Source: Escherichia phage vB_EcoM_G4507. From it: 64,000 nt of DNA. The notes beneath the pieces were generated by a model, which saw only the letters and a list, made by a program, of their open reading frames with translations, was not told where the DNA came from and did not search any database. Numbering within the stretch: position 1 is the first letter of the stretch; every line of letters begins with the position of its first letter. The position numbers and the translations under genes were made by a program. Of this stretch, positions 234-5,354 are shown piece by piece. The stretch lies in the sequence record NC_054919.1; one strand, given 5' to 3'.

Positions 234-2213
234 ATGACTTTATTATCTCCGGGCATTGAGCTCAAAGAAACTACGGTTCAAAGCACCGTGGTTAATAACT
301 CTACTGGTACAGCAGCTTTGGCCGGTAAATTCCAGTGGGGTCCTGCTTTTCAGATTAAACAGGTTACAAATGAAGTAGATTTAGTTAATACTTTTGGTCA
401 ACCAACCGCTGAAACAGCTGACTACTTTATGTCTGCGATGAATTTCTTGCAGTACGGAAATGACTTACGAGTAGTTCGTGCTGTTGATAGAGATACCGCT
501 AAAAACTCATCGCCAATTGCTGGTAATATTGAATACACAATTTCTACCCCAGGTAGTAACTATGCAGTTGGAGATAAAATCACGGTCAAATATGTTTCAG
601 ATGATATTGAAACTGAAGGTAAAATTACTGAAGTAGACGCAGATGGAAAAATTAAGAAAATTAATATTCCTACTGCAAAAATTATTGCTAAAGCTAAAGA
701 AGTTGGCGAATACCCAGCATTAGGTTCTAACTGGACTGCAGAAATTTCTTCATCTTCTTCCGGTTTAGCTGCAGTAATAACTCTTGGAAAAATTATTACT
801 GATTCCGGTATTTTATTAGCTGAAATCGAGAGCGCTGAAACTGCTATGACAGCAGTTGATTTTCAGGCAAATCTTGAAAAATATGGAATTCCAGGAGTAG
901 TAGCTCTCTATCCAGGCGAATTAGGCGATAAAATTGAAATTGAAATCGTATCTAAAGCTGACTATGCGAAAGGCGCTTCTGCATTACTCCCAATTTATCC
1001 AGGTGGTGGTACTCGCGCATCTACTGCCAAAGCAGTGTTTGGATATGGACCACAAACTGATTCACAGTACGCCATTATAGTTCGTCGTAATGATGCTATT
1101 GTTCAAAGCGTTGTTCTTTCAACTAAGCGTGGTGAAAAAGATATTTACGATAGTAACATCTATATTGATGACTTTTTCGCAAAAGGTGGTTCAGAATATA
1201 TTTTCGCAACTGCGCAAAACTGGCCAGAAGGCTTCTCTGGAATTTTAACTCTGTCTGGTGGATTATCATCAAATGCTGAAGTAACAGCAGGAGATTTGAT
1301 GGAAGCTTGGGACTTCTTTGCTGACCGCGAATCTGTTGACGTTCAGTTGTTTATTGCGGGTTCTTGTGCCGGTGAATCTTTAGAAACAGCATCTACTGTC
1401 CAAAAACATGTTGTTTCAATTGGTGATGCTCGTCAAGATTGCTTAGTATTGTGCTCACCTCCGCGTGAAACTGTAGTTGGAATTCCTGTAACTCGTGCAG
1501 TAGATAATTTAGTTAACTGGAGAACTGCAGCAGGTTCATACACTGATAATAACTTTAATATCAGTTCAACCTATGCAGCAATTGATGGTAACTATAAGTA
1601 TCAGTATGACAAATATAATGATGTGAATCGTTGGGTTCCATTAGCAGCTGATATTGCTGGTTTATGCGCAAGAACTGATAACGTATCTCAGACTTGGATG
1701 TCTCCAGCTGGTTATAATCGTGGCCAAATTTTGAACGTTATTAAACTGGCTATTGAAACTCGCCAGGCTCAGCGCGACCGTTTATACCAAGAAGCTATCA
1801 ACCCGGTAACCGGTACAGGTGGTGATGGTTACGTATTGTATGGTGATAAAACAGCTACTTCTGTTCCTTCTCCATTTGATCGTATTAACGTTCGTCGTCT
1901 GTTTAATATGTTGAAAACGAATATCGGACGTAGTTCAAAATATCGTTTGTTCGAATTAAACAACGCGTTTACTCGTTCATCATTCCGCACAGAAACTGCC
2001 CAGTACTTGCAGGGAATTAAAGCTCTCGGTGGAATTTATGAATATCGTGTAGTTTGCGATACAACAAATAATACTCCGTCAGTAATTGATAGAAATGAGT
2101 TTGTTGCAACATTCTACATCCAACCGGCTCGTAGTATAAATTATATCCAACTTAATTTCGTCGCAACTGCTACTGGTGCAGATTTTGATGAGTTAACTGG
2201 TCTTGCAGGTTAA
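234..2213 (+). CDS. 18: tail sheath protein gp18
   Basis: 659-aa ORF MTLLSPGIELKETTVQ...; length and N-terminus match T4 gp18 as recalled; synteny 17-18-19. Confidence 0.95.
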   Translation: MTLLSPGIELKETTVQSTVVNNSTGTAALAGKFQWGPAFQIKQVTNEVDLVNTFGQPTAETADYFMSAMNFLQYGNDLRVVRAVDRDTAKNSSPIAGNIEYTISTPGSNYAVGDKITVKYVSDDIETEGKITEVDADGKIKKINIPTAKIIAKAKEVGEYPALGSNWTAEISSSSSGLAAVITLGKIITDSGILLAEIESAETAMTAVDFQANLEKYGIPGVVALYPGELGDKIEIEIVSKADYAKGASALLPIYPGGGTRASTAKAVFGYGPQTDSQYAIIVRRNDAIVQSVVLSTKRGEKDIYDSNIYIDDFFAKGGSEYIFATAQNWPEGFSGILTLSGGLSSNAEVTAGDLMEAWDFFADRESVDVQLFIAGSCAGESLETASTVQKHVVSIGDARQDCLVLCSPPRETVVGIPVTRAVDNLVNWRTAAGSYTDNNFNISSTYAAIDGNYKYQYDKYNDVNRWVPLAADIAGLCARTDNVSQTWMSPAGYNRGQILNVIKLAIETRQAQRDRLYQEAINPVTGTGGDGYVLYGDKTATSVPSPFDRINVRRLFNMLKTNIGRSSKYRLFELNNAFTRSSFRTETAQYLQGIKALGGIYEYRVVCDTTNNTPSVIDRNEFVATFYIQPARSINYIQLNFVATATGADFDELTGLAG

Positions 2214-2221
2214 TTGATTAT

Positions 2222-2235
2222 GGGGCTTCGGCCCC
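2222..2235 (+). terminator. GC-rich hairpin GGGGC-UUCG-GCCCC after gene 18
   Basis: Perfect 5-bp stem with UUCG tetraloop 9 nt after the gene 18 stop codon; lies inside the TTG-initiated ORF-track model 2214..2858. Confidence 0.5.
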
Positions 2236-2252
2236 TATTCTCGAGGAAACAA

Positions 2253-2858
2253 GTGATTATTTCTAAGTTTGTTACAATAAAACCAAGAAATCATTCAAAA
2301 ATGTGGTCGACAATTCTGGGATATAAAGTATCATATCATGATACAGTATCTGTTCCAATAGAATTAATGCCAAAGAATAGTAATAAAATAGTTGACGCTA
2401 AATGTGATTTGTGTGGTACTAAATTTAGTAGAAGCATTCAACTTTTAAATAGAACACCCACACATGCATGTAGAAAATGTAGCATTAAACAAGTTGCTAT
2501 TAAAAATTCGGAAGTTCAATCTGGAATAAGCAGACCATGGCAAAGAGGCGATAAACATCCTCGATGGACTGGTAAAAGAAAAGAGTTTGCATTATATGCT
2601 AGTAGAGTTCATTCTATAACTAAGTCAGCTAAAATAAGAAAAATTTGGTCAAAATGGCCGAATGCTGATAAAATAGGAGTGTGTGGAGTAGAAGGTGCTT
2701 ACCAACTCGATCATAAAGTATCTATCAAATATGGATTTGATAATTTAATTCCGCCGGAAATTATAGCAAGCGTAAAAAATTTAGAAATAATCACTTGGGA
2801 ATCTAACCGAGAAAAGTCAAAAAGAAATAGCGTAGATCTTTGGGATTTACTAGAATGA
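2253..2858 (+). CDS. free-standing HNH-family endonuclease (mob-like)
   Basis: C-terminal HNH-like motif GAYQLDHKVSIKYGFDNLIPPEIIASVKNLEIITWESNREKSKRN plus Cys pairs (CDLCG...CRKCS). Start set at GTG 2253 preceded by GAGGA; alternative ATG at 2301. Confidence 0.6.
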   Translation: MIISKFVTIKPRNHSKMWSTILGYKVSYHDTVSVPIELMPKNSNKIVDAKCDLCGTKFSRSIQLLNRTPTHACRKCSIKQVAIKNSEVQSGISRPWQRGDKHPRWTGKRKEFALYASRVHSITKSAKIRKIWSKWPNADKIGVCGVEGAYQLDHKVSIKYGFDNLIPPEIIASVKNLEIITWESNREKSKRNSVDLWDLLE

Positions 2859-2865
2859 TTCTAAA

Positions 2866-2883
2866 GGCCTGTTTCGACAGGCC
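2866..2883 (+). terminator. hairpin GGCCUGU-UUCG-ACAGGCC after the HNH gene
   Basis: 7-bp perfect stem with UUCG loop immediately 3' of the HNH ORF stop; followed by a TATAAATA at 2885-2892. Confidence 0.5.
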
Positions 2884-2943
2884 ATATAAATACACTATAT
2901 CCTTAATTCTTTAATTCTATATGCCCTAGGTTAAACATAGGGA

Positions 2944-2951
2944 TATAAATA
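2944..2951 (+). promoter_or_regulatory. late promoter TATAAATA for gene 19 (second copy at 2885-2892)
   Basis: TATAAATA 15 nt upstream of the gene 19 ATG, with GAGG Shine-Dalgarno between. Confidence 0.55.
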
Positions 2952-2965
2952 CTACAGAGGCTAAT

Positions 2966-3457
2966 ATGTTTGTAGATGATGTAACACGAGCGTTTGAATC
3001 TGGTGATTTTGCTCGACCTAACTTATTCCAAGTAGAAATTTCTTATCTTGGACAAAATTTTACATTCCAATGTAAAGCCACTGCTTTACCAGCTGGTATT
3101 GTAGAAAAAATTCCAGTCGGATTTATGAACCGTAAAATTAACGTAGCAGGCGATCGTACATTCGATGACTGGACTGTTACAGTAATGAACGATGAAGCTC
3201 ATGATGCTCGCCAGAAGTTTGTTGATTGGCAAAGCATTGCTGCTGGTCAAGGAAACGAAATTACTGGTGGAAAACCTGCAGAGTATAAAAAGAGCGCTAT
3301 TGTTCGTCAATATGCTCGTGATGCTAAAACAGTAACAAAAGAAATTGAAATTAAAGGTCTGTGGCCTACTAACGTGGGTGAACTTCAATTAGATTGGGAT
3401 TCAAACAATGAAATCCAAACCTTTGAAGTAACTCTTGCTCTCGATTATTGGGAATAA
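2966..3457 (+). CDS. 19: tail tube protein gp19
   Basis: 163-aa ORF MFVDDVTRAFESGDFARPNLFQVEISYLG...; length matches T4 gp19 as recalled; synteny. Confidence 0.95.
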   Translation: MFVDDVTRAFESGDFARPNLFQVEISYLGQNFTFQCKATALPAGIVEKIPVGFMNRKINVAGDRTFDDWTVTVMNDEAHDARQKFVDWQSIAAGQGNEITGGKPAEYKKSAIVRQYARDAKTVTKEIEIKGLWPTNVGELQLDWDSNNEIQTFEVTLALDYWE

Positions 3458-3463
3458 AATGAA

Positions 3464-3478
3464 TGGGGAGAAATCCCC
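3464..3478 (+). terminator. hairpin GGGGA-GAAAU-CCCC after gene 19
   Basis: 5-bp stem-loop directly after the gene 19 stop; late promoter TATAAATA follows at 3505-3512. Confidence 0.45.
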
Positions 3479-3489
3479 ATCCTGCTTAA

Positions 3490-5114
<1,625 letters not shown>

Positions 5115-5115
<1 letters not shown>

Positions 5116-5354
5116 TGGAAGGTTTAATTGAAGCTATTAAATCAAACGACCTCGTAGCCGCTCGTAAATTATTTGCTGAAGCCATGGCTGCAAGAACGAC
5201 TGATTTAATTAAAGAAGAAAAAATCGCTATCGCTCGTAATTTCTTAATCGAAGGTGAAGAACCTGATGACGAGGATGATGACGAAGACGAAGATAGTGAT
5301 GATAAAGACGACAAAAAAGACAAAGACTCTGACGAAGACGAGGATGATGAATAA
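5115..5354 (+). CDS. 67: prohead core protein gp67 (acidic C-terminal tail)
   Basis: 79-aa ORF with poly-Asp/Glu tail; start overlaps gene 20 stop (ATGA-type coupling); synteny 20-67-68-21. Confidence 0.85.

Follow-up and report, generated by a model that had tools for sequence, protein, structure and literature searches.

ORF19.1, a putative free-standing homing-endonuclease gene at the sheath/tube junction of T4-like phages

The window analysed here, a 64,000-nt stretch of the genome of Escherichia phage vB_EcoM_G4507 (NC_054919.1), was identified by sequence comparison as belonging to a Tequatrovirus (T4/T6-like coliphage), with 99.9% identity to Escherichia phage vB_EcoM_G10400 and 98.1% to T6 across positions 1700-3500. 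Gene 18, coding for the tail sheath, occupies 234..2213 on the plus strand (open reading frame list; tail sheath annotation in relatives, G10400 and T6 among them), with terminase gene 17 directly upstream. Its TAA stop codon (2211-2213) is followed on the same strand by an uninterrupted open frame at 2214-2858, by the tail tube gene 19 (2966..3457, from the frame list and annotations in relatives) and by gene 20, which is annotated as starting at 3529.

Direct comparison with T4, T2, RB14, RB51 and others places the left edge of an insertion at the gene 18 stop codon: 644 nt (2214..2857, plus strand) stand in place of the 8 nt TACGGTGC. The T4 junction reads ...GGTTAA TACGGTGC ATTCTAAAGGCCTGTTTCGGCAGGCC ATATAAATAC..., while that of the window phage reads ...GGTTAA, the 644 nt, and then ATTCTAAAGGCC..., with the alignment to empty genomes picking up again at 2858. 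Among 26 Tequatrovirus loci compared, the 8-nt TACGGTGC was found in all 14 empty sites, filled sites held either 644 nt (type A, as in T6 and the window) or 655-656 nt (type B, as in RB3 and sb3), and the boundaries of the cassette were the same in 12 out of 12 carriers, irrespective of allele type. The cassette is an exact 644-nt substitution for 8 nt, with the stop codon of gene 18 on its left and the ancestral gene 18 hairpin on its right, and the first-pass annotation was right that T4 has no gene at this site. No target-site duplication was present at the cassette junctions of the 26 loci and no terminal inverted repeats were visible by eye; a transposon-like insertion was rejected for want of such a duplication.

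The 8-nt empty site is shared by T4, T2 and about 380 further relatives in the database. A probe for the empty site spanned the junction in 382 of 500 matching phage records, whereas a filled-site probe recovered about 100 records and a wider probe 116 of 674. Comparison of the 18-19 interval across T-even genomes, which had been proposed as a check, thus reveals a clear presence/absence polymorphism, with about 382 empty and about 100-118 filled Tequatrovirus records, or carriage by roughly a fifth of close relatives. At the protein level, the type-A product (at least 95% identity) occurs in 68 records and any relative of it in 239. Three records stand out by their labels: MG010123 (Staphylococcus phage SAJK-IND) has a Tequatrovirus sheath/ORF19.1/tube region in which the ORF19.1 copy resembles type B (its protein is 50% identical to that of the window), and OR584013 and PV654520, labelled as Pseudomonas phages, have the same region at about 98% identity to the window. 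These are probably mislabelled or contaminated.

The earlier description of a frame of about 200 codons at 2214-2858 holds, but not its start: TTG 2214 is merely the first start-type codon 3' of the gene 18 stop. The start is most likely GTG 2253, at which the PHROG profile and nearly all homologues open (MIISK...), and the T6 record gives the equivalent position. A Shine-Dalgarno-like GAGGA (2243..2247, plus strand) lies 5 nt 5' of this GTG and is kept in both type A and type B cassettes; an ATG at 2220, upstream of it, is missing in W143 and F13076. With GTG 2253 as the start, the product is therefore a protein of 201 aa, encoded at 2253..2858 (plus strand), and the TGA stop codon (2856-2858) spans the right edge of the insert. 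We refer to it as an ORF19.1-family gene, after the T6 homologue; no paralogues were found elsewhere in the window.

Two hairpins border this coding sequence, and comparison with T4 reverses the origin first assigned to each. The UUCG-tetraloop hairpin GGGGC-UUCG-GCCCC (GGGGCTTCGGCCCC / GGGGCUUCGGCCCC; 2222..2235, plus strand), formerly read as the gene 18 terminator, lies within inserted DNA, past the gene 18 stop and ahead of the ORF start, and therefore belongs to the cassette. It is found in both allele types and is absent from T4; no U run follows it, and it was not scored as a terminator in the terminator scan. The deposited annotation of G2133 has a 'terminator' feature in the interval -96..+64, which is taken to be this hairpin. 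The downstream hairpin GGCCUGU-UUCG-ACAGGCC (GGCCTGTTTCGACAGGCC; 2866..2883, plus strand), formerly attributed to the ORF itself, is common to T4 and all empty genomes and is therefore ancestral; all sequence past 2858 is likewise shared with T4. The cassette hairpin was also considered as a trait of the whole family and rejected as such, many distant members abutting gene 18 with a gap of 0-12 nt.

The gene 19 late promoters do lie downstream of the ORF, as first annotated: a pattern search located two TATAAATA boxes upstream of gene 19, at 2885..2892 and 2944..2951 (plus strand), both of which occur in T4 and are ancestral. The same search found no TATAAATA late promoter in the cassette, and the terminator scan called no terminator there, so that the insert is not the transcriptionally self-contained unit it was thought to be. 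Since the cassette is devoid of TATAAATA, its expression in the window lineage would therefore depend on read-through of the gene 18 late transcript. RNA structure masking the ribosome-binding site has been described for mobE and I-TevI. A similar arrangement was considered here and dropped, as the predicted fold of 2195-2300 was no better than that of shuffled sequences (z -1.56).

The translated product contains the motif quoted in the first-pass annotation (LDHKVSIKYGFDN...NLEIITWESNREKSKRN) as well as its two Cys pairs, CDLC and CRKC. The latter form a CxxC...CxxC zinc-ribbon or treble-clef arrangement (C51, C54, C73 and C76; 2403..2480, plus strand), and the N-terminal half that contains it is presumably the DNA-binding part. 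The C-terminal half comprises a probable HNH-like (H-N-N) beta-beta-alpha core (2700..2822, plus strand), in which D153-H154 end a strand, N176-L177 lie on the second strand and N185-R186-x-K188 fall in the helix. Across 29 homologues with 30-68% identity, C54, D153, H154, N176, L177, W182, N185, R186 and K188 are invariant, and C51 and C73 are conserved in at least 90%. The motif is thus not degenerate (D153, H154, N176 and N185 never vary), and it follows the residue pattern of HNH and His-Me finger nucleases, with an Asp-His pair at a strand end, a structural Asn and a helix Asn, its last residue being Asn and not His. This Asp-His ... Asn ... Asn version is reportedly the one seen in the structure of I-HmuI (Shen et al. 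2004). In that enzyme the metal is bound by the Asp together with the last Asn, while the His acts as the base, which is the catalytic set of H-N-N variants.

The HNH-type motif claimed at the outset is therefore present and invariant in its residues, but no sequence model calls it HNH. Pfam assigned no HNH family to the window protein, and only one of the 29 members grazed HNH_4 (E 0.078); the DUF4379 treble-clef zinc finger scored below threshold in the window protein and weakly in 11/29 members. The ORF19.1 protein had no match in NCBIfam, sequence-profile searches of the PDB returned no HNH chain but weak zinc-finger and spurious leucine-rich-repeat matches, and PHROGs likewise yielded no HNH assignment; these searches covered both the single protein and alignments. 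The HNH label is instead given because of the invariant residues and the fold matches. AlphaFold modelled the whole protein (pLDDT 88) and residues 96-201 (pLDDT 85) with confidence, and in the models D153-H154 end a strand, with N176-L177 on the next strand and N185 in the helix after it. HNH nucleases, Gme HNH (4h9d) and GVE2 HNH (5h0o), rank first in the fold search; with the domain alone, the top Foldseek match was 4h9d_A, which is non-significant (E 0.27, TM 0.44-0.47), and the full-length model gave no useful Foldseek match. Taking the residues and models together, we consider an H-N-N version of the HNH fold very probable for the C-terminal domain.

The failure of every sequence model to return HNH, the Asn in place of the last His, the modest fold-match scores and the position of the gene within the tail gene cluster would also suit a zinc-ribbon nucleic-acid-binding regulator of tail mRNA or late transcription, with an HNH-like but non-catalytic C-terminal domain. 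We regard this as improbable: the invariant residues are precisely those that perform H-N-N chemistry (the Asp-His pair, the structural Asn and the helix Asn), the domain recurs joined to diverse DNA-binding arrays, and a sporadic distribution would be odd for a regulator of core genes. The identity of the two best structural matches raises a further alternative, as both are small phage-type HNH nickases and gene 18 comes just after terminase gene 17. A packaging-associated HNH terminase cofactor, such as those that some cos-type phages encode alongside their terminase genes, is nevertheless extremely improbable here. Such cofactors are expected beside terminase genes and throughout a phage group; here gene 18 stands between the ORF and gene 17, and packaging proceeds normally in T4, T2 and most relatives, all of which lack the gene. 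An N-terminal zinc-ribbon domain is foreign to cofactors of this kind, and the T4-type terminase has a nuclease of its own.

The gene belongs to the family PHROG 5104. Searched exhaustively with HMMER, 1.84 billion cluster representatives yielded 6,436 proteins at E <= 0.001, of which 116 at E <= 1e-30. Pfam gave no match over the nuclease domain in any of the 39 family members scanned. In longer relatives (P0128, P0134, P0142 and P0189) the same C-terminal domain follows DUF7487 or tandem helix-turn-helix modules. Joining one C-terminal domain to varied DNA-binding modules is the kind of modularity typical of homing endonucleases, those of phages having a characteristic beads-on-a-string architecture (review PMC2988022).

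Domain exchange is also visible within Tequatroviruses. Type A and type B cassettes are about 90-97% identical over their first 45 and last 230 nt, whereas the middle 370 nt (window 2259-2628 compared with RB3 and sb3) are unrelated as DNA; accordingly, residues 13-110 of the two proteins share 31% identity while the DNA of the nuclease domain is about 90% identical. As both types sit in genomes that are otherwise about 98% identical, the mosaic amounts to a swap of the N-terminal zinc-ribbon domain with one nuclease domain retained at one site.

Both alleles look functional, the 13 copies examined all being intact with pN/pS of 0.04 (type A) and 0.13 (type B), values that indicate purifying selection on the gene. 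At the same time, its synonymous diversity is only 0.072 (A) and 0.012 (B), against 0.16-0.17 in gene 18 and 0.11-0.13 in gene 19, as calculated from the same genomes for gene and flanks in small samples (6 and 4 genomes). Lower diversity than in the flanks is what lateral spread of the cassette would produce once the genomic backgrounds had diverged. The history of the gene is thus unlike that of its flanks, both in its lower synonymous diversity and in the occurrence of two alleles in near-identical backgrounds.

Outside the close relatives of T4 the family keeps to the same junction. Near-full-length homologues in IMG/VR are located between sheath and tube genes in 39 of 46 cases, one of the 39 (L041) having the homologue on the opposite strand; gp18 in these loci is 36-74% identical to that of the window or of Sinorhizobium phage phiM7. 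The homologues of Salmonella phage S16 and of a Klebsiella phage likewise sit between genes 18 and 19. In phiM7 itself, the homologue comes after the sheath gene and is followed by a NosD-like gene instead of the tube gene. When 77 diverse T4-like loci were sampled with gp19 as the anchor, and hence blind to the cassette, seven had a family member in the 18-19 gap, and the remaining 70 had a gap of 22-205 nt or none (4 loci). Every gap of >300 nt in these 77 loci holds a member of the ORF19.1 family, and no other gene was found in the gap.

The spacing of the gene varies among lineages. In many environmental T4-like phages, 0-12 nt separate it from gene 18 and 26-41 nt from gene 19; such packing resembles that of an ordinary operon member and counts against the homing reading. 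In some enterobacterial lineages the ORF19.1 homologue has its own TATAAATA. A divergent 227-aa subfamily from IMG/VR (L027/L140, L030/L130 and L048/L150) is inserted directly 5' of the gene 19 start, and TATAAATA lies just upstream in L030 and L048.

This close, operon-like spacing relative to both neighbours in distant phages, the persistence of the family at one junction across very distant lineages and strong purifying selection with none of 13 copies decayed would all fit a nuclease that is kept because it benefits the phage (through competitor exclusion, DNA degradation or anti-defence) and is not purely selfish, its fixed position reflecting co-regulation with late genes. We find this rather unlikely given that the gene is missing from about 78% of close relatives and from 70 of the 77 diverse T4-like loci and that synonymous diversity below that of the flanks indicates lateral spread. 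Moreover, excluding a competitor by cutting its genome is the same mechanism as homing.

A further feature of the locus lies not in the cassette but in the 3' end of gene 18, where a recoded patch (codons ...PARSINYIQLNFVA; 2126..2165, plus strand) is situated at -88 to -49 from the insertion point. These codons encode PARSINYI(T/Q)LNFVA, and nearly all changes among genomes are synonymous, the exception being a three-base Thr/Gln codon swap. Over 4.86 kb in 21 Tequatroviruses, the patch is the regional maximum of diversity (pi 0.212; mean 0.029, 99th percentile 0.10). The 48 nt between patch and insert are native-type in all genomes compared, which makes co-conversion of a contiguous foreign tract an unlikely origin. 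A second dense stretch of polymorphism is seen in the same genomes in gene 67, after gene 20 (about 5277-5346 of the window, offsets +2420 to +2489 from the junction), where almost all positions are variable; this stretch falls partly outside the region covered by the diversity scan.

Patch and cassette are associated. One patch haplotype is found in all six type-A carriers and another in five out of six type-B carriers, while the empty genomes among the 21 Tequatroviruses have the T4 haplotype or alternatives. Database-wide, the T4 haplotype occurs in only about 4 of about 100 carriers (sb1, sb3, Ec_YwIITB1 and perhaps sb2 being the only genomes to combine it with the cassette) compared to roughly two thirds of empty genomes, giving an approximate Fisher p of 4e-34 for counts that are phylogenetically non-independent. 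Across genera, the codon state ATA-AAT-TAT is present in 33 of the 53 loci that carry the gene and 12 of the 77 that do not; with redundancy removed, this becomes 12/28 versus 8/39 (p 0.06), and the cross-genus link is then no more than suggestive. Carriers with the other, common codon state (AAC-TAC) mostly belong to the divergent 227-aa subfamily next to the gene 19 start. The idea that carriage-linked codons are translationally poor was dropped, as AAT and TAT are the commoner forms in gene 18 and only ATA is rare (3/50 Ile).

SegF, SegG and MobE cut inside a neighbouring gene; by analogy, the patch at 2126-2165 is read as a likely recognition or cleavage region and is a candidate target or immunity determinant of the nuclease. 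Its polarity could be of either sign, since the same data fit the T4-type patch being the sensitive or the resistant form; carriers sb1, sb3 and Ec_YwIITB1, with their T4-type patch, do not fit a simple model in which the T4 patch is the sensitive site. The patch may also have another role altogether. Non-T4 patch haplotypes alone contain TATAAATT at 2135-2142, inside gene 18 and one base off the T4 late-promoter box, where T4 has CATTAACT; this octamer, made by silent recoding, could be a near-consensus late promoter serving ORF19.1.

Several known systems offer partial parallels. MobA-MobE are free-standing HNH homing endonucleases of T-even phages, among which MobE has been shown to be active (Wilson & Edgell 2009, PMC2790892; review PMC2988022). 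ORF19.1 resembles the Mob proteins in being free-standing, intergenic in a T-even genome, beside a conserved essential gene and patchily present, in the HNH-type chemistry proposed for it and in having no promoter of its own. However, the HNH motif of MobE is N-terminal (Pfam HNH, residues 21-44), whereas the nuclease domain of ORF19.1 is C-terminal, behind the zinc ribbon, and membership of the T4 Mob family was rejected on an hhalign nuclease-domain alignment with T4 MobE, the one Mob protein compared, at a probability of 0.06%. I-TevIII of phage RB3 likewise pairs an HNH motif with a zinc finger in a T-even phage protein (Robbins et al. 2007, PMC1865063), but its gene lies in the nrdB intron, and at the level of PHROG and Pfam families, where the two were compared, nothing links it to ORF19.1. 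The nickases Gme HNH and GVE2 HNH are 8-17% identical to ORF19.1 and differ from it as single-domain proteins of ~100 residues without a zinc ribbon that are not known as site-specific mobile genes. I-HmuI, I-HmuII and I-BasI of SPO1-like Bacillus phages are said to share the Asp-His ... Asn ... Asn motif with ORF19.1, along with a separate DNA-binding part. They are nonetheless intron-encoded nicking enzymes with an N-terminal catalytic domain, and no sequence match between them and ORF19.1 was found.

A behavioural parallel is offered by SegF and SegG, free-standing GIY-YIG endonucleases of T4 (Belle 2002, Liu 2003, as cited in PMC2993671). These are encoded by intergenic genes and cut inside a conserved neighbour away from their own insertion, silent polymorphisms protecting the carrier and marker exclusion being localised; the same is proposed for ORF19.1. 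Their catalytic family is different, and in the case of ORF19.1 the target and the exclusion are suggested by the polymorphism pattern alone.

We propose, with a probability of about 0.75, that 2214-2857 is a free-standing homing-endonuclease cassette of the ORF19.1 family (PHROG 5104). As far as computation reaches, this upholds the core of the first-pass annotation, a homing-endonuclease-type gene inserted in the 18-19 interval, for the gene is polymorphic, intact, HNH-like by residues and probably by fold, and less diverged than its flanks; both outcomes named as refuting it, carriage by all relatives and a degenerate motif, were ruled out. Under the proposed mechanism, late transcription would proceed from gene 18 by read-through past the cassette UUCG hairpin, with low-level translation from the GTG. 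The N-terminal zinc ribbon would then bind specific DNA, and the C-terminal H-N-N beta-beta-alpha-metal domain would nick or cut it. In a mixed infection, the enzyme would cut the cassette-free genome near the 18/19 junction, and the T4 recombination-repair machinery would copy the cassette with neighbouring markers from the carrier genome. The patch at 2126-2165 would be the best candidate for the recognition or cleavage site, its linked variant shielding the carrier.

A more specific and much more tentative reading is that ORF19.1 represents a distinct HNH-like homing-endonuclease lineage without a Pfam model, specialised for the sheath/tube junction across the T4 superfamily, uncultured phages included. 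In Tequatroviruses, two alleles with swapped DNA-binding domains might then be rivals for the slot, each possibly tied to its own silent 40-bp recoding of gene 18 as target or immunity.

The gene is not new. It has been on deposit since 1994 as the T6 "ORF19.1" record, which we suspect to come from Repoila et al. 1994, and it is an element of an ordinary kind for T4-like phages. Most database records name it a hypothetical protein and several leave it out, while others label it an HNH endonuclease, homing endonuclease, type II restriction endonuclease, holin or putative head morphogenesis protein. The reviews of T4 mobile elements and T4-like genomes that were consulted list no homing endonuclease at the 18-19 site, and targeted literature searches found no experimental work on ORF19.1 regarding cleavage, homing or marker exclusion. 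The cassette is real, intact, selectively maintained and spreading laterally; its nuclease activity, target and homing are what we infer from these patterns.

Free-standing homing endonucleases influence which markers survive co-infection and mark the boundaries of genetic exchange, and ORF19.1 sits in the most conserved structural module of T4-like phages. It is carried by T6 and by about a fifth of sequenced Tequatroviruses, many phage-therapy candidates among them. If active, it should skew the inheritance of genes 17-20 in mixed infections and in phage cocktails. The combination of swapped binding domains, a shared nuclease domain and the linked patch gives a handle on target choice and genome immunity, and the nuclease domain defines a large family (6,436 clusters), most phage members of which are annotated as hypothetical.
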